Below are positions 7,108-53,460 of a stretch of DNA of 64,000 bases, piece by piece. This stretch comes from Candidatus Parcubacteria bacterium. Lineage in GTDB: Bacteria; Patescibacteriota; Minisyncoccia; UBA6257; JAGOQP01. The stretch spans positions 173,638-237,637 of the forward strand of contig AP024682.1 in NCBI GenBank assembly GCA_025999395.1. The letters run 5' to 3'. A program made the translations under genes and the position numbers. The notes below the pieces were generated by a model. It was not told the DNA's origin and did no database searches. It saw only the letters and a list, made by a program, of their open reading frames with translations. Position 1 is the stretch's first letter. Every line of letters starts with the position of its first letter.

Positions 7108-7272
7108 ATGAAAACCTTGTACTTTCTCGGTGTTTTTTTTCTTCTCCTTCTCTTCGTGCCGAAGAGAAGGAGAAATTTTCCCCTTTGCCCCCTCTGCGGG
7201 GGCGTGGGGAATCCGGAAAGTCCCTGCCCGCTTTGCGGGCAGGAGATCGAAGATCTTTGCTGGGGGGAGTGA
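7108..7272 (+). CDS. small (54 aa) signal-peptide/membrane-anchored Cys-rich peptide with duplicated CPLCG motif (not in ORF track)
   Basis: ATG 7108 preceded by AAAGGAGG; translates MKTLYFLGVFFLLLLFVPKRRRNFPLCPLCGGVGNPESPCPLCGQEIEDLCWGE, stop TGA 7270; own promoter and terminator; GC-rich relative to surroundings. Confidence 0.5.
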   Translation: MKTLYFLGVFFLLLLFVPKRRRNFPLCPLCGGVGNPESPCPLCGQEIEDLCWGE

Positions 7273-7290
7273 TCCCCCCATTTTTTTATT
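7261..7290 (+). terminator. rho-independent terminator (tggggggag-tga-tcccccca + T7)
   Basis: GC hairpin followed by TTTTTTT; overlaps stop of small ORF and 3' end of convergent nuclease gene. Confidence 0.7.
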
Positions 7291-10200
7291 ACTGAGCGAT
7301 AATTCCTTTAATCTCAAAGTAAATATCCTTTAGAAAAGGTTGATCATTAAACCAACTAAGGTATTGAATCCAAGAATTATTTAAGCGAGAAAACAAATAA
7401 ACGCCTTCTTCTGGATAAGCTTCTTGATTATTAATTAGAGTAATTAAGTATTGATTAGAAGCTTCTTCTGCTCCTTGAGTCTCCATAACCAAAAAGTATC
7501 TTCCCGGATTAATTTGCAGAGGATTAGGTAATATTATTTTTTGGAATTTGGGCTCTCCCTGCCAGCGACTAATATTTTCTAAAACTATCTCTGTTAGTTT
7601 ATTTCCTGAAGGCAGATGATTATCATCTTCTGTTTGAATAGAGATTTTGGCTTGGATAGGAGGATTTTCTTGAAAACTTCCCAAAGAAAGATTTATTTCT
7701 TTAATCAAGGAAGGATTTTTGACATAAAAGCTTTGAGCAACTTTGGCTTCCGAAACAGGGCTTTCACTGCCACCAGTTTTAAAACCAAGATTTCCCCTCA
7801 TTGATTGAAGAGGAGCTTGAGCAATGATTTCCAAAGGCTCAATGCTTAAAGAAAGCACTGCTGGCTCTGAAGCTAACTCTATCTCGTCTTGAGCTCTCAG
7901 GTAAAAAAGATATTCTCCTTTTTCCAGGGGTCCAATTTTTGGCTCAATTTGAGTTGTTATTAAATTTCCATTTTCAATAGTTTGGCCAAAGGCTTTTTGA
8001 GCAATTTGCCAACGACTGTTATCTAACGGTTCTCCTTTTTTGTGATAATTAAATTGATAGGTAATTTTTTCATCTAAACTATCAGGGTCAGTTGAATTAT
8101 CCCAGCTTAGAAGAACAAAGTTATCATTTTCGCCGTTGGTTTTTTGAGCTTGAAAATTAGCAGGGATAGACGGGGGTTGGTGTAAAGGAAATTCTTTATT
8201 AAAAAAGAAGTTTCTTTTATCGGCGGCAATTAATTTGTAAGTAGTTTCTCCTAAACCACTTAGATTTTCTACGGCGTAATATCCTATTGAGACAAAATCT
8301 TTTTCGGTTAATTCTTTTTCTTGGCTGGAAAAATCAGCTATGGGAAGGATTATATTTTTATCTTCAATTTGGTTGAGATTTAAGGAGAGAGAATACGGTC
8401 CTTCTTGAAGGCGACAGTGAGTGTTGTCATCTGCCAAAAAAAGCGCCTCGTGTTTTGTAGGTAAATTATTTCCAGCGCAAGGAAGATAGTTAAGCGAAAG
8501 AGCCTTTTCACTAATTCCCTGAGTTTTGTTGTCGAAAGAATTAGTAAATCTGATTTCTTTAAGAGGAGGGCTATTTAGATAAAAGACAACCGCCTTCCAG
8601 CCATCAATAGTGGGCTTAGGATAAACCGAGGGAATGAAAGGGTAATCTTCAAAATTAATCTCAATTAAATATTGATCTTCGAGAGGATGTTTAAAAAAGG
8701 AAAGATTTTTTATAAATCCGGGAACAAAAATTTTAGCTTCAGCAACTAAAGAAGGCATCTTATCCTTATCAAAAGCTCTTACAAAAAGTGAGTATTCTTT
8801 TTCTACTTCATCAATAAAGACTTGCTGTTTGGTTTCTGAGGTTTGAATTGGATCGGATTGAGAGATCTCTGGAGAGGTGATTTGATAGGAAATTTCTTGA
8901 GAGTTTCCTAAAAAATCTTTTGAAGCCTCCCAGCTTAAATTTAGGGAGAGGCTTTCTTTATCGAAATTTACAACCAAATTTTGAGGAACGGAAGGAGCTT
9001 GGCGAGGCTCGGGAAGGTTGGAGGTATTTTGCGGTAAGGCTTGGGTTCGAATATAAAAATCTTTAGAAGAATTATCGGTGTCGCAGTTATTTCCTCCGAA
9101 CTCTCCTTCTTCTTGAGCAAACAAACACCGGCCTTGAAGAACTACTTTTCTTTCAAAGCTTTGGTTACTTTCGGTTAATGAGGAAAAAGAATTTTCTCCG
9201 ATTATCGGGCTTCCATAAAAGAAGGCATCTTCAATATTTGGATCGTTAATACTGGTGATTTTTTCTTTAGATTTAACAAGAAAAATTCCTCCCCCCTTAG
9301 AAGTGCCGGAGAGTGAAAAGCTAAAGGTTAAATCAGCTTGAGATGCAAATTTAGATTGGGAGTTGGCTAAAAGAAAAAACCCCAAAGGGGAAATTTGATA
9401 ATTATCTTCAAAATTTTTCTTGGAAATATTTTCAAAAGTCATCGCTTGTCCACTTAAATATTGAATTGAGTATCCTGCCAAAGAAATAGTTTCAGAAGTT
9501 GGATTATAGATTTCTATAAATTCGTCTTCTGGATTTTCTCCCCTAACTTGAATCTCGCTAATAACCAAATGATTTGCTGGGACAACTGGATTAACTTGAT
9601 TGATTTCTTTTTGGTTTGGTTGGCCTGGGGTAGGGTTAGCTTCTTGCCAGACCCCTTCAATTTTTTGAAGAGATTTACCGTTACCGTTTGCACCTGTATT
9701 CGATGAGTATTGATATTGATCAATAATGTTTTCTTGGTAGGTTATTCTAATTATCTCCCCATCGTTACCCAGAGAAAAAGAGCTGTCAAAAAGATTTCCG
9801 TTGAAGTTAGGAAAATCTTCGAGAAATTTTTGAGGATTATCGGCAATTACAGCATATTGACCGGGAATTAAATTCTCTAACCCTTGGGAAAATTCTATTC
9901 GGTGATTGGTATCGTTTTCATTTAATTTAAGATCAGTAACTTTGACTGTTTCTGAACCGGCGTTGTAGATTTCTATCCATTCTCTATCAGTATCTGAACC
10001 ACTGGGGTTATACATTATTTCATTTATCAAGATATCTCGAATTGTTTGAGTTTGATTGCTTTCTGATTGTTGGCTTGATCCTCCACCTCGAATTACTTCT
10101 TGTTGGTAAGGGGATGAATTTTCTTGTCGAGGAGTACCTCCAACAACACTTGAGGTGTGCCAAGCTAAATTGCTTTGATTTCTTTCCATTGTTCTTTTAG

Positions 10201-12349
10201 ATGAATTATCTCCTGCCGGCCAAGAGGGGGAAGCTAAAACTTCATCGGCTAAATTGCAATTGGGGTCAAAAAGCCTTAAATCCTCCCCCGAGTTTGCTAA
10301 AGAGCCAGTGTAAATTAAATCGGCTGAAACAGCAGGGACACTGTTATCATCGGTTCTTTCCAGTAAGAGAAATTTTCCCGGAAGTAAAGTTTTGGTAGCC
10401 GCTTCTTTAAGATTGATTTTAATTTCTTCGTTTTTGTCAACAATTTGCCAGCCAGAAAGATTGATGGGTTGAGAAGAGATGTTTTTAATTTCTATCCATT
10501 CATCGGAAGCGCTTTGAGTTGTCCCCATCCAGGCAATTTCGTTGAAAATAAGTGATTGTCTTTGAGGGGATTGAGTGGTTGAAAAGGAGCAGCTTTTTTC
10601 CTGAGAGGTTAAGAGGGTTAAATTTTTCTCATCTTGCTCTTTTTGTACTTGATTTTCTTTTTCCAAACATTTGTTTGGCGACCAGATGCCTTTTTGATTT
10701 TGACGAGTGCCTTTTTCTACATCCTCAAAGACATCTTCTAAGTCGTGAGGGTGATTAAAATTATAGGAATAAGCCAATCCCGCTTCTATTATCATTTGAT
10801 TAATGCTTTTGGAGGGGGAGGATTCTAGATAAACATATCTTAAAAGGCGACCAAAATTATCTTTATCTTGAGGGGAGGTTGTGTTTTTCTTTAGGAAAAC
10901 TTTTTTTCCTAAAACGAGAGAAGCATTGAAATCGCGCGCTTCTTTTCCTAAACACTCGACCTTTCCTCCTTCTGAAAATTCAGGAGCGTCAATTCCTAAA
11001 TAGCGAACTACTTGATTGTTTTCCAGTACAATAGTGTCGCCATCGATAACGCGGCTGACTAAGAAGGTTTCTTCTTTAGATGGGATTGTTATGTTTGGAT
11101 TTTTTTCTTGATTTAAGGAAAGAGAATCAAGTTTGTCTTCTTTACTTTTATTTGTCGGGAGTGATGGTGTTTTTTGAGAAGGTTGACCTTCTGTTTTTTC
11201 GTCTTGGTTAATGGTGTTTTCTATAGGAATTACGGCAACTTCTTGAAAAGAATTTTCTCTACTTGTTATTTTCTTTACTTTATTGATAATCTGATTAGCA
11301 ATTTCATAAATATAAGCCAAAACTCCTTTTTCTTTTTGGGTAAACTCGGGGTTATTTTTGTTTTTCTCTACTTCTTTAAAGAACAAATCAATTACTCCTG
11401 CTCCATATTCCACCGCTTTTACAGAAAGAAGGGACCAGTAGTCGTTCATTATCTTTTTGTTTTTATCAACTAATGACAGATTATTTTTATTTGTTATGGC
11501 ATAACCAAATCTATTGGGGGGAGATTTATATAAAGCAATTCTGTACCACCCTCCATCTTTGTCATACATTAAAATAAAAATCTCTCCGCTTTCTTCTGAT
11601 GTTATCTCTGACTGAGGTTTTTGATAACTGGTTTGTATTCCTATAGCATCTTTACTGAAAAAATTTTCGTTAGAATATTTTGCTAACTTATCAAAATAAG
11701 TCTCTAATTTCTCAAAGGATGGAATTTTATTAAGTTGGGGCCTTTTAGTTATTTCTTTTCCTAATGCGTATTCTTCATAGGGGCTACCTCTTAAATGATG
11801 ATCATTTCTTGCGTGGTCAGGAACGGAAAGATCTTCTACTAAATGAAGAATGTGTCCCAAAGTAAACATTGCCTCTTCTTTGTTTCCTTGAATCCATTGT
11901 TTCAAGGCTTTTTTCCAAATAAAAGCGCTTTCGGTAGAAAGCGCTGATATTTTTTTCTGTTGAATGGCGGTTAAGATTGAGGCAATGGTTGCGGTTATTT
12001 TATAAGTCGGGCTATTCTGAAGTGATTCGCTTTGGGCCCATATTTTTGATGACGAATATTCTATTCCTTTTATAAACAATCCTCTATTATGGATAGGATC
12101 ATAGAAGTGATTCAGCCAACGCGGGGGCTCATCTTCTTTTCTTGATCCGTCGATTAAGAAGGGGATAAGCTCTTCATCTATTTTATTTTGAGGATTATTT
12201 TGATTGTAGAAATTTACAATTTCTTTTGTTAGATAAGTATGAGTTTCTATTTCGTAGGCAAATGTTTCTTTTGATTGGTTAAAATTAATTGTAAATATGA
12301 ATAAAAAAAAGATAAAAAGAAAAATGCCCGCCTTTTTTCTTTTTAACAT
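7289..12349 (-). CDS. giant secreted multidomain nuclease: N-terminal Zn-dependent PLC/S1-P1-nuclease-like domain + staphylococcal-nuclease (SNase) domain + three lamin-tail (LTD) domains + FN3-like repeats
   Basis: signal peptide; GHILHLVEDLSVPDHARNDHH (PLC/S1-P1 Zn-site-like); SNase motif VIDGDTIV...RYLGIDAPE...FGRLLRYVY; LTD repeats IFNEIAWMGT...EWIEIKN, ILINEIMYNPSG...EWIEIYN, LVISEIQV...EFIEIYN. Confidence 0.8.
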   Translation of the reverse strand: MLKRKKAGIFLFIFFLFIFTINFNQSKETFAYEIETHTYLTKEIVNFYNQNNPQNKIDEELIPFLIDGSRKEDEPPRWLNHFYDPIHNRGLFIKGIEYSSSKIWAQSESLQNSPTYKITATIASILTAIQQKKISALSTESAFIWKKALKQWIQGNKEEAMFTLGHILHLVEDLSVPDHARNDHHLRGSPYEEYALGKEITKRPQLNKIPSFEKLETYFDKLAKYSNENFFSKDAIGIQTSYQKPQSEITSEESGEIFILMYDKDGGWYRIALYKSPPNRFGYAITNKNNLSLVDKNKKIMNDYWSLLSVKAVEYGAGVIDLFFKEVEKNKNNPEFTQKEKGVLAYIYEIANQIINKVKKITSRENSFQEVAVIPIENTINQDEKTEGQPSQKTPSLPTNKSKEDKLDSLSLNQEKNPNITIPSKEETFLVSRVIDGDTIVLENNQVVRYLGIDAPEFSEGGKVECLGKEARDFNASLVLGKKVFLKKNTTSPQDKDNFGRLLRYVYLESSPSKSINQMIIEAGLAYSYNFNHPHDLEDVFEDVEKGTRQNQKGIWSPNKCLEKENQVQKEQDEKNLTLLTSQEKSCSFSTTQSPQRQSLIFNEIAWMGTTQSASDEWIEIKNISSQPINLSGWQIVDKNEEIKINLKEAATKTLLPGKFLLLERTDDNSVPAVSADLIYTGSLANSGEDLRLFDPNCNLADEVLASPSWPAGDNSSKRTMERNQSNLAWHTSSVVGGTPRQENSSPYQQEVIRGGGSSQQSESNQTQTIRDILINEIMYNPSGSDTDREWIEIYNAGSETVKVTDLKLNENDTNHRIEFSQGLENLIPGQYAVIADNPQKFLEDFPNFNGNLFDSSFSLGNDGEIIRITYQENIIDQYQYSSNTGANGNGKSLQKIEGVWQEANPTPGQPNQKEINQVNPVVPANHLVISEIQVRGENPEDEFIEIYNPTSETISLAGYSIQYLSGQAMTFENISKKNFEDNYQISPLGFFLLANSQSKFASQADLTFSFSLSGTSKGGGIFLVKSKEKITSINDPNIEDAFFYGSPIIGENSFSSLTESNQSFERKVVLQGRCLFAQEEGEFGGNNCDTDNSSKDFYIRTQALPQNTSNLPEPRQAPSVPQNLVVNFDKESLSLNLSWEASKDFLGNSQEISYQITSPEISQSDPIQTSETKQQVFIDEVEKEYSLFVRAFDKDKMPSLVAEAKIFVPGFIKNLSFFKHPLEDQYLIEINFEDYPFIPSVYPKPTIDGWKAVVFYLNSPPLKEIRFTNSFDNKTQGISEKALSLNYLPCAGNNLPTKHEALFLADDNTHCRLQEGPYSLSLNLNQIEDKNIILPIADFSSQEKELTEKDFVSIGYYAVENLSGLGETTYKLIAADKRNFFFNKEFPLHQPPSIPANFQAQKTNGENDNFVLLSWDNSTDPDSLDEKITYQFNYHKKGEPLDNSRWQIAQKAFGQTIENGNLITTQIEPKIGPLEKGEYLFYLRAQDEIELASEPAVLSLSIEPLEIIAQAPLQSMRGNLGFKTGGSESPVSEAKVAQSFYVKNPSLIKEINLSLGSFQENPPIQAKISIQTEDDNHLPSGNKLTEIVLENISRWQGEPKFQKIILPNPLQINPGRYFLVMETQGAEEASNQYLITLINNQEAYPEEGVYLFSRLNNSWIQYLSWFNDQPFLKDIYFEIKGIIAQ

Positions 12350-12404: not shown

Positions 12405-12992
12405 TTAGAAACTCTCTATTTTCCAAACATTAGAATATTTATTAAGAATCATTACTAACTGAAGCTCTATTTCGCCGTTAGAGTTTTTGTAGACAAATAC
12501 ATGCTCAGAATCAGAAAATTTATAGTTGTCGTCATATCTTTTTATATCATCGGCAAATCTAATAAGATTTCCGTCTTCTTTTAGTTTTTTCAGCATCTCT
12601 ACCCATTGTTTATCAATCATTCCCTCTTCATTTAACGCAAAATACTTGCTTGCTAACTCAATATCTCCCTTTTTCAAAGCTTCTATAAACATTGCTAATG
12701 TTTCTTGAGGAGTTTTTCCTCCATAAGTGTCAGCCTTCATTGCTTCTTCATAATTCTTCTGAAATTCATAAAATTTTTGATATTTTTTCTCCAAATCTCT
12801 TCCTACTTTTGCAGATTCACTTAAGTAATTATTCCAAAGATAAAATCCTCCCAGAGTTAGGAGGATTATTCCTATAAAGACAGAACCGAACTTTAAAAAA
12901 GATTTTTTATTAATAGGGGAGGAAATATTACTTTCAAGATTATTTTCTTGAGGATTGCTTTGAGGAGAAAATTGCTCTTGTGATTCTTGCAT
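12405..12992 (-). CDS. hypothetical N-terminally membrane-anchored protein
   Basis: 195 aa, Q/N/S-rich N-terminus, single TM (VFIGIILLTLGGFYLW), no recognisable domain. Confidence 0.35.
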   Translation of the reverse strand: MQESQEQFSPQSNPQENNLESNISSPINKKSFLKFGSVFIGIILLTLGGFYLWNNYLSESAKVGRDLEKKYQKFYEFQKNYEEAMKADTYGGKTPQETLAMFIEALKKGDIELASKYFALNEEGMIDKQWVEMLKKLKEDGNLIRFADDIKRYDDNYKFSDSEHVFVYKNSNGEIELQLVMILNKYSNVWKIESF

Positions 12993-14703: not shown

Positions 14704-17700
14704 ATGAGTACTACTTTTAAAAAATTCGCGTCGATTACGGTTTCTGCGGTGACAATGGTTTGGGCTTTGGGAGGAGTTTTTCCTTTCTCAGCGCAAGCTG
14801 CAACAGTTGAGGAGCTTCAAGCTCAAATTGCTCAGCTGTTAGCCCAGATCAATCTCTTGCAGAGCCAATTGACGCAGCAAGGAGGAGGTGCAAGCACTGG
14901 CACTTCTTACAACTTTACCCGAGACCTCACCTTGGGTTCAGTTGGAGAAGATGTTAGAGCTTTGCAGCAATTCCTTAATGCTCAAGGATTTACGGTCGCA
15001 ACCAGTGGCGCTGGTTCTCCCGGAAATGAGTCCACTTATTTCGGTCCCAAGACCAAAGCAGCTTTGGCTAAGTTCCAAGCCGCGAAGGGAATTTCCCCCG
15101 CTCTTGGATACTTTGGTCCTAAGACCAGAGCTTTTATTGCTACGATGGGAACTGGCACCGGAACTGGAACCGGCACTGGCACTGGAACCGGCACTGGAAC
15201 TGGTACTGGAACAACTCCAACCGGAACCGGGATTGTTTTTGCTGGCGTCTCAGTTAGCGGTGGTGATGTTCCAAAGGGAGCAACTGGTGTAACTGTCACC
15301 AAATTTGATGTTACTGCCAACGAAGCCTCTACTCTTCAGACATTAGTAGTAACCCTCAAAGGAGTAAGCTCTCCTTCTGATGTTAGCCGAGTCTACCTCT
15401 ACGAGGGAGACACTCGACTTTCTACCGGAAAGACCTTCTCTTCTGAAACTTTGAAAGCGGAATTCTCTAACTTGAATTTAGCTTTCACTGCTGGACAGAA
15501 GAGAACTCTTTCATTAGTGGTAGATGTGGCTTCGAGCGCTAACTCGGGAAGTGCTATCCAGATTGAGGTTTCCTCAGCTACCTTTAGCTCGGGAACTGTT
15601 TCTGGACTTCCTTTAGTGGGAGCTACAGTAAGAGTTAGTGGTGTTTCGGGAGCTACTTTGAAGATTGCCAACAGTGGTTCTGTTGCCAATGTTAAAGTTG
15701 GTGACACTAACGCTGTTTTGGCTAACTTCAGCTTAACCCCAGCCAACGAGCATGTTACCTTAAAGAGAGTGACCTTGCGCAACTTAGGAACCGCTGATAT
15801 TTCTACCTTTACTGACTGGGTGTTGGTAGATACTGCGGGAACCAAGTTAGCGGATGGTGTTGTTAATGGAAGATATGTAACCTTCTCTGGTTTCAACTAC
15901 ACCATTAACAACGGTACTCAGAGAAACTTTGAGGTGAAGGCTACAGTTGGGGCAGTGAGCAATCCCGGAACCTCTACAGTTCAATTTGCGGTTGATCAAG
16001 CTTCCGATGTCTATGCTGTAGGTAACTACTACGGCTACGGAGCTCAGCTGCTTGATAGCTCTGGAAATGCTTACTCAACTAATGCTTATCAGGAGACAAC
16101 TGCTATTACTGTTGAGGGTGGTCAGTTGACTTTCTCCTTTAATGGTCCTTCAGCTTCTAATGTTGCCATTAACAGCCAAGATGTAGTTTTGGCTGAATTC
16201 ACTCTATCTTCAGCAGTGGCTGGCTACATTGATTCAATTAAAGTAGCTGTCTATGCTGATGATGATGGTGACAATGATCCGTTTGATGGCAACCCTTCTA
16301 CTGCTTTTGATGCTGGGGGTTTAATCAGAGGTGATGGATCTGCCGATGTTGAGGCTAACTTGAAGGATATTAAGATTAAGAGAAAGTCAGATGGAGTAAC
16401 TGTTTGGGGACCACAAGAGCTTTCCTTGAGTGGAAACGATGCTACCCAAACCTTAACCTTCAACGAAGATGTCACTTTGACTACTGGTTCCGTTGTCTAT
16501 CAAATTACTGCTGATATCGACAACGATATGCCAGCTAGTGTAGAGATCGGTGCTTCGTTGGTTAACAATGGATTTAGCGCTTGGGATAGTCAGAACAACA
16601 CTATCACCAACGTAATTCCTTCCGTTGCCAATTTGGGAAGCATCAAGGGTAATGTAATGACCACTACCTCTGCTTCTTTCTCAGTTGCTTTGGCTTCTAA
16701 CCCAACTTCTCAAACTGTTGTTGGAGGAGGATGGGTTGATGCAGTAGGTTTGGTCTTTACTGCCGGATCAGCTTCCGATGTCACCGTCTCTTCCTTAACC
16801 TTACAAGGTATTGGAGATGATGATGGTTCTGGAGCTTCCTACACTGCTGGAGAATTCGATGATGTTGTTCAGCAGTTAACTTTGTGGGTAGGAAATACTC
16901 AATTGGGAACCGCTGTTTCTCCCAGCTCTGCTGGAACCTTTACTTTCAGCGGCTTCTCAAGAAAGATCTCTGCTGGACAGTCTGAGACTTGGGTAGTTAA
17001 AGCTTTGCCTGACACCACTTTGGGTGCAGCTACCCCTGACAAGTTCTACATTGATTTAACAAGAACAGCAGCTGGAGAGAGTACTAATGTAGGAGCAGTT
17101 GATAAAGACGGCAATCCTCTTAAGGCTACTAATAGCTCTGATTGGGGAGGAGCCAGCACCGAACTTAACGATGCTGGAGAAGTTGCTGTCACTGTCCAAT
17201 CTTCTGGCTCTTTATCAGTAATTTTGGATGGTAACGCTCCTTACAGCCAACTTCAGGTTGCTAATACTACCGGCAATGAGCTTTCTAAGTACCGCTTTGA
17301 TGCTCTCTATGAAGCTTTCAAGGTGGAGACTTTGTCGGTGGCTAACCTGACTTCAGCTGGAGCTTTAGCCGCTTCTGATGAGTTGGCAACCGTTAGTCTT
17401 TATGGAGCTGAAGGATCTGCTACTCCTTCTCCTATTGCTTCGGGATCATTAGATTCCAATGGAGTAGTGAGATTCTCTAACAGCGGTGGCCTCTTTACTG
17501 TTAATCCCGGTACTCCTTACTATGTAACAGTAAAGGCTGATGTTGCTGCTGAAGGAACTGGCTCCAGCGGTGCTGACTCTGGAGACAGCGTTCGTTTGTC
17601 TTTGTACTTGGCAGATGATAATGCAGTCACTGACTTTAGAGCGGTTGGTGTCAATTCTTCTTCTGCTGTACAAGAAGCCGACGCCGCTTCTGATAACATT

Positions 17701-18837
17701 GCTCCAGTAATCTCCAATCTTACCTTCGCTGATAACACCAGCAATGGTGATAACGATGCAGACTCGGTAGTGATTGCTGGAAACAATATGATTGTTCGCA
17801 AGTCTAAGCCCACTGTTGCCTCAACCAGCTCTTCTGGAACCTTGTCAAACGGTGAAAACACCTTACTTGAGTTCACTGTTTCCGCCTCTGGTTCTGATGA
17901 TGTTACCTTAAAGAGAATCCTTTTGGATTACTCTGAAACCGGAACCTTAGAGGTTTCTGACTGGAAGGTTTATGAGGGAAGCAGTGATATCACTTCTCAA
18001 GCAACCTTAAGAGCGGTTGGTGATTTTGATGGTAACGGCGCTTTGGATCTTGAAACTGATACTGATCTTACCAGCGGAGACATTGGTCTTTCTTCGGGTG
18101 CTTCAGCGGTAGTCTTCCTCACCTTTAACAGTGAGAGAGTAATTGCCGCCGGCTCCTCTAAGACCTTTGCTATTAAAGCCACTGTTTCTTCAGCTGGAAC
18201 TGGAGAATCAGTTACTTTGGGCTTGCGCAACGATTCAGTTAACTCCGGCACTCGAACAGCTTATGGTCAGTATCGCCAGTATGACTTCATTCTTGATCCA
18301 ACAGGAAATACTGTGAAAGTTAAGAGCTTAACCGGTAGCGACCTTGCTACTTTGGCGGTTGGTACCGAAGCTGGTTACGCATCGGCGGGAGAAGATGCGG
18401 GTAGTGGTTTGCGCCGCATTACTGGCTCCTGTGTAGCAGCAGTAGATACTGGTGTGGTTGCTAACAACACCTTCTTCTTTGACTTGAACTGCAACGGCAC
18501 CGATGAAACCGGTGAACCAACAGTAGCAGCTGCTAATGTAGAAGATGAAAGCTATGCTACTTTGTCTGGAGTTGATTTGAGCCGTGCGCCGTTGGTTATT
18601 TCCAGTGCCACCCTGATGTTCTTTGATGTCAACGGTAATGGAACCAACGACACCGGCGAAGCTGGATTGACTATCACTGGAGGCGTTACTGGTTCGGGTG
18701 GTGTTGTCTCCAACTTTGTCTGGTCTGATTCTTCAGCTGATATTCACTCCGAAACTAGCTCCGATTGGACTAATGGCTTCTATGTCAATGCTCCAACCGG
18801 AAATCTTTCTGGAGTGAAGAAAACTTTGAGCTTGTAA
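14704..18837 (+). CDS. giant (1377 aa) secreted cell-surface protein with N-terminal coiled coil, peptidoglycan-binding (PG_binding_1-like) domain, Thr-Gly linker and long Ser/Thr/Gly-rich beta-repeat region
   Basis: signal peptide MSTTFKKFASITVSAVTMVWALGG; LTLGSVGEDVRALQQFLNAQGFT...YFGPKTKAALAKFQAAKGI; (TG)11 linker. Confidence 0.65.
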   Translation: MSTTFKKFASITVSAVTMVWALGGVFPFSAQAATVEELQAQIAQLLAQINLLQSQLTQQGGGASTGTSYNFTRDLTLGSVGEDVRALQQFLNAQGFTVATSGAGSPGNESTYFGPKTKAALAKFQAAKGISPALGYFGPKTRAFIATMGTGTGTGTGTGTGTGTGTGTGTTPTGTGIVFAGVSVSGGDVPKGATGVTVTKFDVTANEASTLQTLVVTLKGVSSPSDVSRVYLYEGDTRLSTGKTFSSETLKAEFSNLNLAFTAGQKRTLSLVVDVASSANSGSAIQIEVSSATFSSGTVSGLPLVGATVRVSGVSGATLKIANSGSVANVKVGDTNAVLANFSLTPANEHVTLKRVTLRNLGTADISTFTDWVLVDTAGTKLADGVVNGRYVTFSGFNYTINNGTQRNFEVKATVGAVSNPGTSTVQFAVDQASDVYAVGNYYGYGAQLLDSSGNAYSTNAYQETTAITVEGGQLTFSFNGPSASNVAINSQDVVLAEFTLSSAVAGYIDSIKVAVYADDDGDNDPFDGNPSTAFDAGGLIRGDGSADVEANLKDIKIKRKSDGVTVWGPQELSLSGNDATQTLTFNEDVTLTTGSVVYQITADIDNDMPASVEIGASLVNNGFSAWDSQNNTITNVIPSVANLGSIKGNVMTTTSASFSVALASNPTSQTVVGGGWVDAVGLVFTAGSASDVTVSSLTLQGIGDDDGSGASYTAGEFDDVVQQLTLWVGNTQLGTAVSPSSAGTFTFSGFSRKISAGQSETWVVKALPDTTLGAATPDKFYIDLTRTAAGESTNVGAVDKDGNPLKATNSSDWGGASTELNDAGEVAVTVQSSGSLSVILDGNAPYSQLQVANTTGNELSKYRFDALYEAFKVETLSVANLTSAGALAASDELATVSLYGAEGSATPSPIASGSLDSNGVVRFSNSGGLFTVNPGTPYYVTVKADVAAEGTGSSGADSGDSVRLSLYLADDNAVTDFRAVGVNSSSAVQEADAASDNIAPVISNLTFADNTSNGDNDADSVVIAGNNMIVRKSKPTVASTSSSGTLSNGENTLLEFTVSASGSDDVTLKRILLDYSETGTLEVSDWKVYEGSSDITSQATLRAVGDFDGNGALDLETDTDLTSGDIGLSSGASAVVFLTFNSERVIAAGSSKTFAIKATVSSAGTGESVTLGLRNDSVNSGTRTAYGQYRQYDFILDPTGNTVKVKSLTGSDLATLAVGTEAGYASAGEDAGSGLRRITGSCVAAVDTGVVANNTFFFDLNCNGTDETGEPTVAAANVEDESYATLSGVDLSRAPLVISSATLMFFDVNGNGTNDTGEAGLTITGGVTGSGGVVSNFVWSDSSADIHSETSSDWTNGFYVNAPTGNLSGVKKTLSL
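15148..15213 (+). repeat. (GGN-ACN)11 microsatellite encoding Thr-Gly dipeptide repeat
   Basis: ggaactggcaccggaactggaaccggcactggc... 66 bp; potential slipped-strand length variation of surface protein linker. Confidence 0.8.
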
Positions 18838-19136: not shown

Positions 19137-21263
19137 ATGAAAAAAATTTCAAAAATTTTGATGATAGGGTTTATAACCTTTTCAGTTACTTTCTGGTCGA
19201 CCGGGGGCGTTCAAGCAGCTTCCACTGCTTCTCAGTTTACTAACAATGGTGCTCCCACAAACACTGTTGGTCGAGGAGATACTAATGTTCTTTTGATGGA
19301 TATTACTCTTTATGATCCAACCGATACTCTGGTTCATGATGGTTCACAACCGTCAGCAACAGGAGAAGCACTACTTTCTTTCCCCGCAGCAACTAAATTT
19401 TACGATGATACTGCTACTAACAACAATACTTACGATGATGGAGAAGCAATTATTAATGATGCTGATAACGACGGCTTTCCTTCTGCTGGAGACTCGGTTA
19501 TTACCTCAGGTAAAGCCAAGGTAAAAGGATTAAATAATCATAATGTTTGTTTTGATGGTGCTGATGCAGAATACGATGGCACAGAAGTTATTTGGTATGA
19601 TGCTGATAATGGCGGTTGTACCTCTGCTGCCTTTACTACGGGAGTAGATGTTATCTTAGTTGGTTCGGCTACTCCCTCTGGAGCTGGAGGAGGAGAATTT
19701 GCTGCTGGCGGAGAACAAGAGATTGGATTCTTAGATGAGGATAATAATGGCTCATACACCTGTTCTCGAGCAGGAACTTGTGAACCACTGGTTTATTCTG
19801 GAGTCAACGCCTCTAATATCACTGATGGTATAAATCTTCCCACAACTACCGCTTTCTTTGATTCATCAGCAGAAGCAACTGATGGTATCAAAACTACTGG
19901 TGTTGGATGGGATGAGACTGGTGGTGCTGAAGATTTAAACGCCTTCCCTGCTGGAAATAAGTTTCGCGACAATGACAACAACAGCGCCTACAACGATGGA
20001 GAGGATATTTACTTTGAACAAGATCCAAATGCTAATTCTGTGATCAACCAAGGGAGTTTAGGTCTAATTACTCTTATTAGAAATCTAGGAACAGGAAAAA
20101 ATTACGATATTTCTAATTGGCATATTTATAAAGAAAGCGGTGCTACTCCCGGATTTCAAGCAAACCAAGATTTACCATTAGATCTATTTATTACTGACTT
20201 TGATTCCAATCTTAATTATTGGACTCTTATACCAAACCCGCTCACAAGTGATACCACCTTCACCGCCAGTCAAAGAAGAATCTATATTACTGCTGACATT
20301 TCCTCAGGAGCTGATAATGGTCATACTTTTCAACTTAAAATAGATGTCAATGGTTTTGATATGGATGAGATCGATACCACTGGTGATGGACCTTCTGATG
20401 CTCCAATTATTAATTCTGGTATTATCACTATCAGTGTTCCTTCTATTGGTCCAGCTGACTCTACTCCACCAGCTGCTCCTTCTCAGGTTAAAGCCCAAGG
20501 AACTGGTAAAAGTGGAGAAATTAAGCTTACTTGGAAAAATCCTACTGATTCTGATTTTTCTGGAGTAAGAATCTTTCGATCTCTTTCTGAAGGAAAAGCC
20601 GCTATCAACGGAGAGATTATTGTTCTTTCCACTAAAGAAGAATCCTTTACTGATACTGGCCTAACAGATGGAAAAACTTATTACTATGTTCTTAAGGCAA
20701 TGGATGGAGCTGGCAATATGTCAGTCTCTCAGGAAGTAAGTGCGATTGCTGGCTCTCTTCCTCAAGAAACTCAACCATCTACTCCTTCTCAACCCCAAGA
20801 AGAAACCCCAATACAAACTTCTCCTGAAACCCAACCAACTCAACCAACTCAAGAAGGGTCCACTTCTCTTCCTTCTCTTGAAGAGCTTTTAACTATTTCT
20901 TTGCCCTATCCCAATCCTTCAGCTGCTGAAGAGATAAAGGCTGATATTGAATATCTCCAGAAAAAGTTACTCGACTTACAAAAAGCCGTTGCTCAAGCAA
21001 AAGGAGAAACCCTTCCTCCTCTAGCTAAAGTTTATGTCTTTAATACCGACTTTGGTAAGGGATTGCGAAACGATATTGTTAGAAACCTTCAAACCATCTT
21101 GGTTTATGAAGGTTTGCTTGATCCTCAATATGTCACTGGTTACTTCGGAAACATTACCTTTGAAGCTGTCAAGAAATTCCAAGCCAAGTACGGTATTCCT
21201 CAAACTGGTTTTGTTGGTCCCTTAACTCGCGCTCAACTTAATAAGCTTTACGGAGGAGAATAA
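19137..21263 (+). CDS. secreted surface protein with FN3 domain, Pro/Thr/Gln-rich linker and C-terminal peptidoglycan-binding (PG_binding_1-like) domain
   Basis: signal peptide; FN3 (PPAAPSQVKAQGTG...KLTWKNPTDSDFSGVRIFRS...YYYVLKAMDGAGN); C-terminal LRNDIVRNLQTILVYEGLLDPQYVTGYFGNITFEAVKKFQAKYGIPQTGFVGPLT. Confidence 0.65.
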   Translation: MKKISKILMIGFITFSVTFWSTGGVQAASTASQFTNNGAPTNTVGRGDTNVLLMDITLYDPTDTLVHDGSQPSATGEALLSFPAATKFYDDTATNNNTYDDGEAIINDADNDGFPSAGDSVITSGKAKVKGLNNHNVCFDGADAEYDGTEVIWYDADNGGCTSAAFTTGVDVILVGSATPSGAGGGEFAAGGEQEIGFLDEDNNGSYTCSRAGTCEPLVYSGVNASNITDGINLPTTTAFFDSSAEATDGIKTTGVGWDETGGAEDLNAFPAGNKFRDNDNNSAYNDGEDIYFEQDPNANSVINQGSLGLITLIRNLGTGKNYDISNWHIYKESGATPGFQANQDLPLDLFITDFDSNLNYWTLIPNPLTSDTTFTASQRRIYITADISSGADNGHTFQLKIDVNGFDMDEIDTTGDGPSDAPIINSGIITISVPSIGPADSTPPAAPSQVKAQGTGKSGEIKLTWKNPTDSDFSGVRIFRSLSEGKAAINGEIIVLSTKEESFTDTGLTDGKTYYYVLKAMDGAGNMSVSQEVSAIAGSLPQETQPSTPSQPQEETPIQTSPETQPTQPTQEGSTSLPSLEELLTISLPYPNPSAAEEIKADIEYLQKKLLDLQKAVAQAKGETLPPLAKVYVFNTDFGKGLRNDIVRNLQTILVYEGLLDPQYVTGYFGNITFEAVKKFQAKYGIPQTGFVGPLTRAQLNKLYGGE

Positions 21264-21457: not shown

Positions 21458-23734
21458 ATGGCAGTCACTAAGATTATTGGATATATTCTGCTTTCTTTAG
21501 TTTTTGCTCCTTTGCTGGTTGATATTTCGGTTTTCTTTCCTTATATTACCGCCAAGGTGATGTTTATTCGGTTAATGGTTTTGTTGGCGGGGATTCTTTT
21601 TTTTCTTAATTTTCTTTGGGAAAAGTCTTTCCGAGAAAAAGTCATTAAAAAACTATCTCTTCTTTTTTCTAATCCTCTTTTTATTTCGGTTCTTTTATTT
21701 CTCTTGGCAAATTTTTTAGGAACGGTCTTGGCGGTTGATTTTTTTCAGGCTTTTTGGGGAGATGTGGAAAGAGGAGAGGGGTTTGTGGGGCTTGTTTATT
21801 TCTTTGGTTTCTTTCTTTTTTCTCTTTTAACTTTTGAAGAAAAAGAATGGCGATGGTTTTTGCGTCTGTCGCTAATTTCGGGGTTAATCCTCTTTTTAGA
21901 TGAAATAAGGCAGTGGCTTTTCTTTCATCAAAGCCGGCCATCTTCTTTTTTGGGAAATCCTATATATTTAGGAGCTTATTTCCTTTTTATTATTTCGGCT
22001 GCCATTTTTGTTTTTTCAGAAAAAAACCCTTCTTTATCTAAGAGAAAATTTTCTTATTATTTCTGGAAAGTTTTGGCGGCGTTAATAATTCCTTTGTCGG
22101 TGGTAGGAATTTTGGTTACTCAAACACGAGGAGTAATTTTGGGCTTGGGAGTAGGCTTTCTTTTTCTTTCTTTTTATTTTTTAAAAGAAGGAAAGGATAT
22201 TTCTTTTTTTAAAAAGCTAAATTTTCAGCAATTGGGAGCAATTGTTTTGTTTTTTGTTTTTGCTTTAGGTGTTGGTTTTTTCCTCACCAAAGATCTTTCT
22301 TTTTGGCAGAAAATTCCCGGTTTTGATAGATTGGCAAAAATAAATTTTCAAGATGCCACCCTTCAGACGCGATTAATTGCCCTCAAAATCGGCCTTCAAG
22401 CCATCAATCCTTCCAATGAGGGAATTTCAAAATTTATTTTTGGCTGGGGGCCGGATAATTTCTTCATTGCCTATAATAAATATTACAACCCCACTGTTTA
22501 TCTTTATGAAAATAGTTGGTTTGATAGAGCTCATAACAAATTGATAGATGTCTTGGTGATGAATGGTGTTTTGGGTTTGTTGTTTTATCTTTTTATCTGG
22601 ATTTTCTTTTGGGCAGCGCTTCTTAAAAAAGAAGGTTCCTTGGCTAAGCATTTAAACTTTTCTCAAAGAGGCGGGCTTCTTTTCTGGGGGGTGGCTTATT
22701 TTTTCCAAAATCTTTTTGTATTTGATTCGATTGCGACTTATTTAAATTTTTTCTTTTTTTTGGCTTTGGTAGTTTACTTTTCTTCTTTAAAAGAAGTTAA
22801 GGGGGAAGTTAAGGAAGCTAATTTTCAAAAGGATTCTTTTACTCAAAATTTGGAAACAAGAATTTTTTTGGGCAAGAAAATTGCTTATTTTATGATGTTT
22901 GGAGTTTTAATTCTCTTTTTTTCTTCGAGTTTTTATTTTAGTTTGGTTGCTTACTCTCAAATGAAAGAATATTTATCGGCTTTACGCACAGGAAACGCTA
23001 ACTTAACTTTGGAAGCTTTTAGAAAATCTTTGACTCCCTACACCTATGCTCAAGAAAATATTCGCACTCATTTTGCTTCCTATATGCAGGATTATAACGG
23101 GCGAGGGGAAAAAGCTGATAGAATGATTTTAGAATCGTTAGTGGCTTTAGAGGGTTTGGTGGCTTTTGAAAAATATGACCCGCGTAATTTTTTGGTTTTA
23201 AGTCAATCTTATTTGGCTTTCGCTGAAGCTAAAGGAGATTTTAATCTTTTGAAATCAGCTGAATTTTATGCTCGCAAAGCTTTAGAGCTTTCTCCTCGAA
23301 GACAAAATGTTCGCTATCTTGTAGGAGAGATTTTGGTTTTAGAGGGAAGGCTAAAAGAAGCCGTCTCTCTTTTAAGAGAAACTTTAGCTCAGGAGCCGGC
23401 AGTAGGCGATTCTCATTTTCATTTAGCTTTAGCTCTTTTGGATGAAGGAAAAGATTCTTGGCCTGAAGCTTTCGATGAATTAGAAACTGCTTTTTCTTCG
23501 AGGGGACTTTATACTTTAAGAGCAAGAGATGAGGTTTTTTTGTCAAAAGTTTATCAAGATCTTTTTGAGTATTTTTTAAAAACCCGCGACACTCGCCGCT
23601 TTGTGGCTACTGCTCAAAGATTGATTTTGTTCTTTCCGGAAAGGGAAAGTTTGCTAAGGGAATTTATTGATGTGGCTCTTGAGGGAAAATGGGGGAAAAT
23701 TAATCCTCGCTTTTTTAAAAATGAGGGAATTTAA
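21458..23734 (+). CDS. O-antigen ligase/polymerase-like (Wzy_C) polytopic membrane protein with C-terminal TPR region
   Basis: 758 aa, >10 TM helices, Wzy_C-like loop (VTQTRGVILGLGVGFLFL), C-terminal soluble TPR-like repeats. Confidence 0.6.
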   Translation: MAVTKIIGYILLSLVFAPLLVDISVFFPYITAKVMFIRLMVLLAGILFFLNFLWEKSFREKVIKKLSLLFSNPLFISVLLFLLANFLGTVLAVDFFQAFWGDVERGEGFVGLVYFFGFFLFSLLTFEEKEWRWFLRLSLISGLILFLDEIRQWLFFHQSRPSSFLGNPIYLGAYFLFIISAAIFVFSEKNPSLSKRKFSYYFWKVLAALIIPLSVVGILVTQTRGVILGLGVGFLFLSFYFLKEGKDISFFKKLNFQQLGAIVLFFVFALGVGFFLTKDLSFWQKIPGFDRLAKINFQDATLQTRLIALKIGLQAINPSNEGISKFIFGWGPDNFFIAYNKYYNPTVYLYENSWFDRAHNKLIDVLVMNGVLGLLFYLFIWIFFWAALLKKEGSLAKHLNFSQRGGLLFWGVAYFFQNLFVFDSIATYLNFFFFLALVVYFSSLKEVKGEVKEANFQKDSFTQNLETRIFLGKKIAYFMMFGVLILFFSSSFYFSLVAYSQMKEYLSALRTGNANLTLEAFRKSLTPYTYAQENIRTHFASYMQDYNGRGEKADRMILESLVALEGLVAFEKYDPRNFLVLSQSYLAFAEAKGDFNLLKSAEFYARKALELSPRRQNVRYLVGEILVLEGRLKEAVSLLRETLAQEPAVGDSHFHLALALLDEGKDSWPEAFDELETAFSSRGLYTLRARDEVFLSKVYQDLFEYFLKTRDTRRFVATAQRLILFFPERESLLREFIDVALEGKWGKINPRFFKNEGI

Positions 23735-38411: not shown

Positions 38412-38750
38412 TGGTGGAGATGATGGGAGTTGAACCCATGTCCAAAGTAATTTTTAGTAAACCTCTACGAGCGTATCTCTCTTTAGAGAGAAAATAAAGT
38501 TGCCTCTTTTTTGTCCTTCTGTTTTTGGAGGCACAAAAACAGAAGTAAGTCTTGTTTCTTACACCGAACTTCCCTACAAGACCTCAGGAGTCGATGCCTC
38601 TCGATTTAAGCGAGAGGAAATCCCTGCTTTACGCAAAAGCGTAAGCGGGAGCCAAATTTTTGTTGGCAGTTATTTTTTTTGATAGCTTAACGGGCTATCA
38701 GGCGGCTCGCAGTTTACTAAAAATTTACTTTGTCGAATCCCGGCATCCCC
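38412..38750 (-). ncRNA. ssrA: tmRNA (ssrA), tag peptide ANKNLAPAYAFA
   Basis: 5' GGGGATGCCGGGATTCGACAAAG... (conserved GGAUUCGAC), 3' tRNA-like end ATGGG-TTCAACT-CCCAT-CATCTCC-A-CCA with G3:U70; internal ORF GCC AAC AAA AAT TTG GCT CCC GCT TAC GCT TTT GCG TAA; begins 11 nt after the smpB stop. Confidence 0.85.
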
Positions 38751-39414: not shown

Positions 39415-42400
39415 ATGTTTAAAATGGTTTTTATGCTAATCAACTTAAAATCTTTTAACCCTTCGGAGGTTGAAGAAAAAGTTCTTCAATTCTGGAAGGA
39501 AAAAAATATCTTTCAAAAAACTTTAAATCCCAAGGGGAAAAAGAAAAAATTCTTTCATTTTTGGGAGGGCCCTCCTTACGCTAATGGACGGCCGGGAATT
39601 CATCATGTTTTGGCTAGAGTGTTTAAAGATGTTTTTTTGCGTTACAAAACGATGCAGGGGTTTATAGTTCCCAGAAAAGCTGGTTGGGATACTCACGGTC
39701 TTCCTATTGAAATTGAAGCAGAAAAAGATTTTGGAGTTAGCTCTAAAGTGGAGATAGAAAAAATAGGAATTGATCGTTTTAATCAAAAAGCCAAAGAAAT
39801 TGTTTTCCGGTGTAAGGATGAGTTTGAAAAAATGACTGAACGAATTGGTTACTGGTTGGATTTAAAAAATGCCTATGTAACTTACTCTCCGGATTTTATT
39901 GAAAGTTTGTGGTGGGTGTTTAAAAGAATTTATGAGAGAGGTTATTTGAAAGAGCTTTACCGAGTAGTTCCTTATTGTCCGCGATGTCAAACTCCTTTAT
40001 CTAATCACGAACTGGGTCAGCCGGGAGTTTATAAAAGCGTTCCCGATCCTTCTTTGTTTGTAAAATTTCCTTTGGCAGGAAAAGAAAACGAATTTCTTTT
40101 GGTTTGGACCACTACTCCCTGGACTTTGCCGGCGAATGTTGCAGTGGCAGTGTTACCGGAAGGAGATTATGTAAAGTACAAAGTTGGCCAAGACTATCTC
40201 TGGATGCTTGAAGGGGCACCTTTTTTGAGAGAGAAATTTGAATTAGAGGAAGTGGAAAGAAAAAAAGGAAAAGAAATGGCTGGCTGGAAATATCAACCGC
40301 TTTATCCTTTAAAACAAAAAATTAATTTACCAATTGAGCCTTACAGCGTCCTTTTAGCAGATTTTGTTTCAATGGAAGAAGGGACAGGATTGGTTCATAT
40401 TGCTCCCACTTTCGGGGAAGATGACTTTAATTTAGTTTTTGCTCAGGGAATTAAAGAAAATCATCATCTGCCCCACACCGTTGAGGATGATGGAACGATG
40501 GCTAAAGAAGTAATTGGAGAAGGGCTGCCGATAAAAGAAGCTGATAAAGTAATTCTTCAGGATTTAGAAAAAAGGGGATTAGTTTTATTGGTGGATAAGA
40601 TAGAGCACGAATATCCTCACTGTTGGCGTTGTTCTTCTCCCTTGATTTATTTTGCTAAAAAGTCTTGGTTTTTTGAGGTTTCTCGCTTAAGAAAAGAATT
40701 AGTAGAAGCTAATCAAAAAATAAACTGGTACCCTGAATATCTAAAAGAAGGAAGATTTGGAAATTGGATCGCCGAAGCCAAAGATTGGTCTATTTCTCGC
40801 GATCGCTTTTGGGGGACGCCTCTCCCAATTTGGCGTTGTCAGAAATGCCAAAAGTTAACAGTAGTAGGAAGTTTTCAGGAATTATTTTCCTTACAACCCC
40901 ACGAAGAACCAAATAAATATTTTCTTCTTCGTCACGGAGAGGCGGAAAGTAATATTAAACAAATTGTTGATGCTGATCCTAAAAACAAAGACAGGGTTGG
41001 TTTAACTTCAAAAGGGAAAAAACAAGCTCAGCAGGTAGCCAAAAAGTTAAAAAAGGAAGGAGTTGATTTAATTTTTTCCTCTGATTTTCGAAGAACTCGA
41101 GAAACAGCTGAAATTATTGCCAAGGAATTAGGCATCAAAAAGGTTATTTTTGATGAGCGCTTAAGAGAAATTAATGTGGGAATCTTTCACGGGCATAATG
41201 TCCAAGATTATCACACTTACTTTCCTTCTTATCAGGATAAGTTTCAAAAACAGCCGGAGAAGGGAGAAAGTCTAAAAGATGTTTCTAAAAGAGTTTGGGA
41301 TTTTGTTAAAGAGGTGGAAAAGAAATATCACGGCAAAAAAATTTTGATAGTTAGTCACGAGTATCCTTTGTGGATGCTTTATTCGGTGATTAAGGGTTTG
41401 TGGCAGGAGCGCTCGATTCGGGAAAAAGAAGAAAGGGGTAATGATTTCTTAAAGCCAGCCCAATTTGAAGTAGTTGATTTTGCTTTAGTGCCGCGAGATG
41501 AGTGGGGAATGGCTGACTATCATCGCCCTTATGTAGATAAGATTTCGCTTAAGTGTCAGCATTGCGGATCTTTAGCTAATAGGATTTCTGATGTAGCGGA
41601 TGTTTGGTTTGATTCAGGAGCAATGCCTTATGCTCAAGAACATTGGCCTTTTTCTAAGATAAAAGAAGGATCATCGATTTCTGATTTTGATAAAAAATCT
41701 CTTAAAAAACCGGATCGTTTTCCAGCCGATTTTATTTGTGAAGGAATTGATCAAACAAGAGGCTGGTTTTACACTCTTTTAGCAACCGCGGTGCTTTTGG
41801 GAATGGGTACTCCTTACAAAAATGTGGTTTCTTTGGGATTGGTTTTAGATAAATATGGTCAAAAAATGTCAAAATCTCGCGGTAATGTAGTCGATCCTTG
41901 GTCGGTTATCAATAAGTTTGGAATCGATGCGGTGCGCTGGTATTTTTATTCAATTAATTCTCCAGCTGAGCCTAAAAACTTTGATGAAGAAGAAATAAAA
42001 AATTCCTTAAGAAGGTTACTGATGCTGGTTTACAATTCCTTTGCTTTTCTTCAGCTTTATGGGCAAAGGCGCCTACCTTTAGAAAAAACTCCTTCTTTAA
42101 AAAATCCCTTAGATCAATGGATTCTTTTGCGTCTTAGCCAAACCGCTTTAGCGGTTGAAGAAAGAATGGATAATTATGATGTTTTAAAATCAACTCAGTT
42201 AATTGAAGAGTTGGTGGATGATTTGTCTCGTTGGTATATTCGCCGCTCGCGAAGAAGATTTCAAAAACCAGATTTAGATTCTTTACAAGGAAAGAAGGAT
42301 TATCAAAATGCTTCTTGGGTGTTGGCTTTCGTTCTTTTAAATCTTTCTAAGTTGTTGGCTCCGTTTATTCCTTTCTTTGCCGAAGCTCTTTATCAATCTC

Positions 42401-52944: not shown

Positions 52945-52952
52945 TTATTTTG

Positions 52953-53026
52953 CGCGGCCGACCGGACTTGAACCGGCAACCCCCGCCGTGACAGGGCGGT
53001 GCTCTGACCAATTGAGCTACGACCGC
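52953..53026 (-). tRNA. tRNA-Asp (GTC)
   Basis: GCGGTCG-TA-GCTC-AATTGGTCA-GAGC-A-CCGCC-CTGTCAC-GGCGG-GGGTT-GCCGG-TTCAAGT-CCGGT-CGGCCGC-G; 74 nt, no encoded CCA. Confidence 0.85.
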
Positions 53027-53320: not shown

Positions 53321-53346
53321 ATCTTACTATTGAAAAGTCGGCTTTC

Positions 53347-53375: not shown

Positions 53376-53380
53376 TTCTT

Positions 53381-53410: not shown

Positions 53411-53460
53411 GGTGTACTTTTTGTTGTGTGTGGTAAGTGTGCGATGAAACGCAATGAGAC

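Follow-up and report, generated by a model that had tools for sequence, protein, structure and literature searches.

Much of bacterial diversity lies in the Patescibacteria, and the ways in which these organisms draw nucleotides and lipids from their environment or hosts are largely unexplained. A 64,000-nucleotide stretch of the Candidatus Parcubacteria contig AP024682.1 (positions 173,638 to 237,637; hereafter the window) raises the question of what one very large secreted protein of such an organism acts upon. The original prediction, made from the letters alone, described the 1686-amino-acid (aa) product of the open reading frame at 7289-12349 as a secreted, cell-surface DNA/RNA-degrading machine with a zinc domain resembling phospholipase C (PLC) or S1/P1 nuclease, a staphylococcal nuclease (SNase) domain, and three lamin-tail domains (LTDs). 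The open reading frame was exact, on the minus strand, and all of the quoted motifs were present: HILHLVEDLSVPDHARN at residues 166-182, DGDTIV at 436-441, RYLGIDAPE at 449-457, and E(W/F)IEI(K/Y)N starting at 617, 790, and 943. Tentatively, with a confidence just short of even, we regard the product (hereafter the giant protein) as a ~190 kDa Sec-secreted, disulfide-bonded modular hydrolase with two independent phosphodiesterase domains, both of which appear catalytically competent by their residue sets. Its component domains are of known kinds, and GenBank already lists the protein, with a generic name; the undescribed part is the combination of a divergent PLC-type zinc head, an SNase domain on a tether, three LTDs, an FN3/β-sandwich stalk, and an obligate DUF4878-like partner. 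The gene and its N-terminal, enzymatic part are laid out as follows.

7289..12349, minus strand: whole open reading frame, 1686 aa plus stop codon (open reading frame calling, database matches)
12257..12349, minus strand: predicted signal peptide, residues 1-31 (hydrophobic segment, small residues at -1 and -3, invariant Y32)
11315..12256, minus strand: predicted trinuclear-zinc, phospholipase-C-like head domain, residues 32-345 (AlphaFold2 (AF2), Foldseek, profile searches, hhalign)
11078..11314, minus strand: low-complexity linker, residues 346-424 (sequence composition)
10670..11077, minus strand: SNase domain, residues 425-560 (Pfam, NCBIfam, PDB search, BLASTP)

Sequence and model comparisons place the head in the PLC/P1 superfamily, on the PLC side, and too divergent for the Pfam family Zn_dep_PLPC (PF00882). 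This family was matched by the whole protein with E = 0.0055 (17.1 bits) and by the isolated head with 21.1 bits, both below the gathering score of 26.8, and 22 of 26 family members matched it weakly (best E = 4.8e-5). No Pfam match to the S1-P1 nuclease family (PF02265) was found in the whole protein or in any of the 26 family members. When the family profile of the head was compared with the PDB, it matched Listeria PlcB (E = 1.3e-4) and Bacillus cereus PC-PLC (E = 0.012) over the motif block LGH..HL.ED.S.P.H..N....YE, and hhalign gave E = 4.8e-5 for PC-PLC versus E = 0.045 (probability 1.2%) for P1 nuclease. Structure prediction, which the original prediction had proposed as the means of separating S1/P1 from PLC, likewise put the head with the PLCs. 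The AF2 model (predicted local distance difference test score (pLDDT) 86.6; predicted template modelling score 0.88) retrieved bacterial zinc PLC chains as all of its 17 best Foldseek matches in the PDB, namely Clostridium alpha-toxins, PlcB, and PC-PLC, with E values of 4e-4 to 1e-2, a probability of 1.0, and target-normalised TM-scores of 0.56-0.61 against PC-PLC and PlcB. The S1/P1-type nucleases SmNuc1, TBN1, AtBFN2, S1, and P1 appeared in the same search with E values of about 1-6 and probabilities of at most 0.16. The zinc domain of the first description was thus retained, as one of trinuclear-zinc type, while a nuclease role for it was not supported, the head being clearly nearer to PLC than to S1/P1.

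The putative zinc ligands of the head are Y32, H37, D73, H81, H169, D173, H179, H185, and E192. The zinc ligands of PC-PLC are W1, H14, D55, H69, H118, D122, H128, H142, and E146; seven of these nine align directly, with H37, D73, H81, H169, D173, H179, and E192, and the correspondences W1 to Y32 and H142 to H185 are suggested by position only, H185 lying three residues off in the alignment. Among 104 aligned homologues, Y32, H37, E72, D73, H81, D84, H169, H179, D183, and E192 were invariant, and D173 and H185 were conserved in at least 90%. Arg77 and Arg181, near ligand positions, were also invariant and are specific to the family. Conservation within the protein is highest in the head, with a mean column identity of 49% in a 26-sequence sub-alignment versus 21% in the full-length alignment.

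The second candidate phosphodiesterase, the SNase domain, was recovered by Pfam (PF00565; residues 448-557) with E = 4.1e-17 and 63 bits against a cut-off of 21. NCBIfam gave sub-threshold thermonuclease matches only, the NucI model matching with E = 9.8e-18 and 64 bits (under its 250-bit equivalog cut-off), plus a weak ExeM match; a PDB sequence search with the giant protein returned staphylococcal nuclease only (E ~1e-7). BLASTP comparison with Staphylococcus aureus nuclease A showed 32% identity and the equivalences D438=D21, R449=R35, D454=D40, E457=E43, R501=R87, and Y527/Y529=Y113/Y115, with T41 replaced by A455. In nuclease A, D21 and D40 are Ca2+ ligands, R35, E43, and R87 are catalytic, and the ligand contributed by T41 is its backbone carbonyl. 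Judged by these residues, the domain is expected to act as a Ca2+-dependent nuclease, and nuclease activity of the giant protein is in this respect well supported.

The SNase domain had been taken as a defining feature of the protein, yet among the 120 closest homologues only about 20 carry one, and about 85% of those examined have none. The slot between the head and the first LTD measured 208-276 aa in SNase-bearing members, and in the others held a low-complexity linker of 55-210 aa or an extra LTD. These figures are inter-domain distances, by which the insertion was delimited; gaps in the global alignment were unusable, as linkers align over the SNase domain. Because few homologues bear it and the slot is otherwise a low-complexity linker, the SNase domain is, on this comparison of homologues, an accessory module inserted in a flexible or disordered tether. 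A single acquisition was considered and dropped: monophyly was not supported, and the bearers fell into three to five separate groups in a neighbour-joining tree of the head, a crude tree that is too weak for claiming multiple gains.

Behind the SNase domain the protein consists of β-rich modules.

10115..10561, minus strand: LTD 1, residues 597-745 (Pfam, family alignment, internal repeat alignment)
9620..10042, minus strand: LTD 2, residues 770-910 (best Pfam stretch 767-882; internal repeat alignment)
9035..9577, minus strand: LTD 3, residues 925-1105 (Pfam, internal repeat alignment; conserved C1075-C1089 at its end)
8723..8998, minus strand: FN3 domain a, residues about 1118-1209 (profiles against the PDB, AF2 β-sandwich)
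8198..8713, minus strand: β-sandwich domain of unknown family, residues about 1213-1384 (AF2 model)
7838..8191, minus strand: FN3 domain b, residues about 1387-1504 (profile matches to chitinase and prolactin-receptor FN3)
7292..7831, minus strand: C-terminal β-sandwich, jelly-roll-like, of unknown family, residues about 1507-1686 (AF2 all-β)

Pfam recovered the LTD family (PF00932) in three stretches with E = 1.9e-41 and 141 bits against a cut-off of 34, so that both the SNase domain and the three LTDs of the original prediction lie well above the cut-offs and far beyond chance. The three copies align with one another at about 597-745, 770-910, and 925-1105; LTD 1 is the most conserved and bears the C587-C698 pair. 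The proposed order of domains required revision at two points. FN3 spacers had been placed between the SNase domain and the LTDs, where there is a linker of ~35 aa, the two FN3 domains following the LTDs instead; and the C-terminal ~580 aa, comprising these two FN3 domains and two further β-sandwiches alternating with them, had been left out. AF2 modelled the C-terminal 637 residues as all-β with a pLDDT of 82. FN3 domain a matched titin and chitinase A1 FN3 profiles in the PDB with E values down to 1e-7. The β-sandwich at 1213-1384 (pLDDT about 80-90) carries an invariant C1291-C1312 pair and had no match in Pfam or PDB sequence searches, and the C-terminal domain gave weak single-member hints only, to DUF4082 and Wzt_C. 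Profile searches of the C-terminal half against Pfam and the PDB recovered FN3 alone. Foldseek comparison of this half with the PDB returned FN3 arrays of fibronectin and of receptors, a glycan-binding surface protein, and proteins of phage tails and baseplates; for the two sandwiches other than FN3, the matches were generic, low-TM FN3/Ig arrays that gave no identification. The LTD/FN3 array probably binds a polymer or a surface.

Secretion, which had also been predicted, agreed with the sequence. A single hydrophobic segment, at residues 5-26, lies at the N-terminus, and the residues at -3 and -1 of the putative cleavage site were small in all 45 homologues inspected, fitting signal peptidase I. 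With the predicted cleavage at TFA|Y, the mature protein would begin at the invariant Tyr32. All eight cysteines are paired within single domains, giving four pairs that are conserved in the family; because this arrangement and the lone signal segment fit such a location, the giant protein is predicted to be extracytoplasmic. Sequence scanning found no LPXTG/sortase motif or other C-terminal anchor and no second transmembrane segment. Surface tethering of the enzyme is accordingly our inference only, and the "cell-surface" location of the original prediction is unproven.

The giant protein belongs to a large family. Searching the head profile against 1.84 billion representatives of clusters at 50% identity, we obtained 984 matching clusters at E ≤ 1e-30, 3014 at 1e-10, and 6317 at 1e-3, and in 144 of the 150 best matches the match started no more than 20 residues from the N-terminus. 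Its members in Paceibacterota (Wolfe-, Jorgensen-, Brenner-, Harrison-, Lipton-, Colwell-, and Yanofskybacteria) number in the hundreds, are 1200-1900 aa long, and have the head, the LTDs, and the C-terminal array in common; some carry extra PKD or cupredoxin-like domains. Family comparison indicates a core, conserved throughout Paceibacteria, in which a PLC-like head is joined to three LTDs and a stalk of β-sandwiches, and the family appears confined to Paceibacteria. The product itself shares 99% identity with MCX7616137.1 ("lamin tail domain-containing protein", Patescibacteria group bacterium), whose 90% cluster also includes BCX15940.1 ("hypothetical protein", Ca. Parcubacteria). The older names of a Wolfebacteria homologue ("endonuclease I", "phospholipase D/ComEA") were set aside, Pfam finding only LTDs in it. 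In the library searched, the literature on the candidate phyla radiation and Patescibacteria yielded nothing on a PLC-like/LTD family beyond one incidental mention.

The giant gene is preceded by a conserved partner.

12405..12992, minus strand: upstream partner gene, 195 aa (orthologues, GTDB loci, weak DUF4878)

The partner has a polar N-terminus, one transmembrane helix (about residues 31-53), and a domain of ~130 aa that is weakly DUF4878/NTF2-like. Positive charges precede the helix, and by the positive-inside rule the N-terminus would be inside and the domain extracytoplasmic. The match to DUF4878 (PF12870; E = 0.003, 18.2 bits) was below the cut-off of 24.1, three of four orthologues matched this family weakly, and the PDB gave weak hints to designed NTF2 folds (E 0.3-0.5). 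Three loci retrieved by way of the giant protein (L001-L003), one of them representing a member without SNase, each have a partner orthologue of 47-48% identity immediately before the homologous giant gene, on its upstream side. In an independent search of GTDB species genomes with the partner, 17 loci were recovered, and a PLC-like gene was immediately downstream in all 16 that included downstream sequence; only one of these 16 carried SNase. The two genes are adjacent and often overlapping, and within the window no terminator-like site lies between them. Partner and giant gene thus form a conserved two-gene unit.

From the domain identities, intact catalytic residues, secretion signal, and conserved gene pair observed here, we infer substrates, surface tethering, and a role for the partner as follows. 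Once the signal peptide is removed, the phospholipase-C-type head with its trinuclear zinc site would start at the invariant Tyr32; most likely it would hydrolyse the phospholipids of foreign membranes, those of a host or of prey, at their phosphodiester head groups. Behind it, the Ca2+-dependent SNase domain on its flexible linker would cut extracellular or released DNA/RNA into 3'-phosphorylated oligo- and mononucleotides. The long stalk of three LTDs and four further β-sandwiches (two of them FN3) probably keeps the enzymes on their substrate by binding a polymer or surface, and the membrane-anchored DUF4878-like partner, presumably co-transcribed, probably tethers or controls the enzyme at the surface of the producer. 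The net effect would be that an organism of very restricted biosynthetic capacity scavenges nucleotides, phosphate, and possibly lipid from outside. Secreted SNc-type nucleases have been found in 15 of 28 Patescibacteria metagenome-assembled genomes, and nucleobase salvage was proposed for them (PMC11495043). The original prediction had drawn support for nucleotide scavenging from a lack of nucleotide-biosynthesis genes; such genes are indeed absent from the window, but this absence is uninformative because 64 kb is only about a tenth of the ~0.56-Mb genome.

Phospholipid head groups are the substrate that we consider most likely for the head, since every comparison groups it with the PLCs. 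Several points weigh against this reading. The head is below the Pfam gathering score and only 12-14% identical to solved PLCs; it has family-specific inserts and the invariant Arg181 beside a putative zinc ligand; the substrate could be other than phospholipid; no anchor motif or second transmembrane segment stands behind a stay of the giant protein on the cell; and the LTD and SNase companions are typical of nucleases, which argues that the head also takes nucleic acid. The predicted mature N-terminus is moreover short, and its Y1...H6 spacing is of the P1 nuclease type rather than the PLC type. Because of this spacing and the family-specific, invariant Arg77 and Arg181, the substrate of the head is not readable from homology alone. 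These same features give some room to a purely nucleolytic protein, which we consider possible but rather doubtful. The head would then be an S1/P1-type nuclease or 3'-nucleotidase rather than a phospholipase, trimming the 3'-phosphorylated fragments of the SNase domain and removing the 3'-phosphate to give nucleosides and phosphate for uptake. The surface 3'-nucleotidase/nuclease of purine-auxotrophic trypanosomatids offers an analogy. P1 nuclease is in the same superfamily with the same ligand set, the predicted mature head begins with an aromatic residue at position 1 and a histidine at 6 (Y32...H37), Arg77 and Arg181 lie near ligand positions, and the SNase domain and LTDs fused to the head are companions of nucleases elsewhere (PMC6085458, PMC8289736). 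Nevertheless, PLCs outranked the S1/P1 nucleases in every sequence and fold comparison, PF02265 was unmatched, and, as ~85% of the examined homologues lack SNase, a two-step logic cannot explain the conserved core.

Other readings of the gene pair keep the PLC-like head and change its purpose. In one, a toxin and its immunity protein, the head would be a membrane-damaging weapon against host or competitors, the DUF4878-like partner an immunity protein or inhibitor shielding the producer's own membrane, and the SNase domain an added second toxic or digestive activity. The strictly conserved, adjacent, often overlapping gene pair, the PLC-like nature of the head, and the predicted outward orientation of the partner domain, on the side where the enzyme acts, are consistent with it; against it, the partner matches DUF4878 weakly (E = 0.003), the data suit an anchor or a chaperone just as well, and toxin genes are usually variable, yet here the head is the most conserved part (49% versus 21% mean column identity), so we judge this reading quite improbable. 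Still less probable is a structural or adhesive surface protein, such as an S-layer-associated or host-attachment fibre, in which the β-sandwich array would serve the main function and the enzymes would be secondary. In its favour, β-sandwich modules make up about 1100 of the 1686 residues, surface glycan-binding, phage tail/baseplate, and 'grappling hook' proteins are among the fold matches, and large PG-binding proteins and a Wzy_C protein are encoded nearby. However, conservation is greatest in the enzyme head, whose catalytic residues are invariant, the protein has no anchor motif, and the TM-scores to adhesins were low (0.1-0.3), reflecting generic Ig-like folds. A broader proposal, which we think unlikely, is that the outward-facing, membrane-anchored NTF2-like partner and the giant protein, with its PLC-like head on an LTD/FN3 stalk, form a Paceibacteria-wide host-interaction device, in which the head cleaves host membrane phospholipids, the partner protects or tethers the producer, and clade-specific modules in the linker, such as SNase here, add nucleic acids to the harvest; if so, the head would open the host or supply lipid to bacteria unable to make their own.

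The modular hydrolase that we prefer represents a family that is large yet unstudied (about 1,000 clusters at 50% identity, E ≤ 1e-30) and is annotated only as "lamin tail domain-containing". Should its head act on host membranes or finish the digestion of nucleic acids, the family would offer a testable candidate for scavenging or host-interaction machinery, and the SNase-bearing variant illustrates the addition of extra catalytic modules to the family scaffold.

The window is chromosomal DNA of Patescibacteria/Paceibacteria and encodes NusA, H+-PPase, ClpP, ClpB, IF3, L20, tmRNA, IleRS, PPDK, enolase, and GatC/A. A foreign or mobile origin of the giant gene was rejected on account of its G+C content, which matches the surroundings, and of the synteny kept around it in relatives (SpoU methylase, HTH protein, large PG_binding_1 proteins, Wzy_C/TPR protein). 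Two large, secreted-looking PG_binding_1 proteins adjoin the gene pair, one of 1377 aa (14704-18837, plus strand) and one of 708 aa that additionally bears FN3 (19137-21263, plus strand), followed by the Wzy_C/TPR protein at 21458-23734. Locus L002 has a like neighbourhood of Wzy_C, a 1132-aa PG_binding protein, the partner, and the giant gene.

The region 3' of the giant gene is strongly structured.

7110..7288, minus strand: G+C-rich hairpin cluster, probable terminator region (folding energy; directly 3' of the stop codon)

It contains four strong G+C-rich hairpins with a minimum free energy of -95 kcal/mol (z = -9.35) in a genome of ~35% G+C, and no Rfam family matched them. A long near-perfect hairpin with its loop centred on GATC also follows the giant gene in the homologous loci (L001:9052-9200, L002:10966-11099, L003:11299-11391). 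All of these are probably terminators without a U-tract and, less probably, a structured RNA. Elsewhere in the window, the 21-nt G+C-rich hairpin GCCGAGAGATTGGCTCTCGGC occurs in identical copies at 55955-55975 and 59193-59213, 3.2 kb apart, and may be a repeated terminator or small repeat element.

Among the remaining genes, the plus-strand gene at 39415-42990 encodes a 1191-aa class-I IleRS-like synthetase (tRNA-synt_1 3.5e-108, Anticodon_1, DUF5915) with an unusual insertion, a complete His_Phos_1 domain (E = 2.5e-39, residues 503-663) between the halves of the catalytic domain. A tmRNA gene (38412-38750, minus strand; Rfam 149 bits) encodes the tag peptide ANKNLAPAYAFA, and one tRNA-Asp and two tRNA-Met genes lie within 52952-54567. 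Three plus-strand open reading frames had no Pfam match at E ≤ 1e-4: 47037-49724 (895 aa), 60792-61952 (386 aa), and 62156-63616 (486 aa).

Comparison with known systems revealed partial likeness to four kinds of enzyme. ExeM/NucH of Shewanella and a Ca. Izemoplasma protein are likewise secreted multidomain proteins that join LTD(s) to a nuclease and have been implicated in the use of extracellular DNA (PMC6085458, PMC8289736). The LTD of ExeM contributes to activity and is not essential (PMC6085458), and in Ca. Izemoplasma the loci for DNA degradation are marked by a protein of 1,049 aa with nuclease and LTD (PMC8289736). Besides its single LTD, ExeM possesses OB folds, an EEP nuclease domain, and a GlyGly-CTERM anchor, and the giant protein lacks these three. 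Membership in the ExeM/NucH families (NF033680/NF033681) was rejected, the only match being to an LTD (E = 0.04; 11.9 bits against a cut-off of 1300), with no EEP domain and no anchor. The SNase domain resembles the staphylococcal nuclease/thermonuclease proteins Nuc, NucI, and YncB in being secreted and in having the catalytic equivalents; these stand alone, whereas here the domain sits in the linker of a 1686-aa protein.

The bacterial zinc PLCs (B. cereus PC-PLC, 1AH7; Listeria monocytogenes PlcB, 8CQM; the N-domain of Clostridium perfringens alpha-toxin) have the all-α fold and the motifs HFYDP and LH..xD...P.H..N in common with the head, and likewise, as predicted for the head, an aromatic mature N-terminus after removal of a signal or propeptide. 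The head differs from them in having Tyr rather than Trp at the predicted N-terminus, the first His 5 rather than 10-13 residues away, a displaced eighth ligand (H185), the invariant Arg181, an extra β-hairpin subdomain (about 249-274), and a long C-terminal helix; the giant protein has no PLAT domain and is fused to LTDs, FN3, and here SNase. Relative to the S1/P1 nucleases and the trypanosomatid 3'-nucleotidase/nucleases, the head has no Pfam match and stands at a distance (Foldseek E about 1-6, hhalign E = 0.045), while the superfamily, the trinuclear zinc site (putative in the head), and the predicted N-terminal aromatic residue with His6 spacing are common to both. The trypanosomatid enzymes serve surface nucleic-acid salvage by an auxotroph, which is conceptually the same lifestyle logic.

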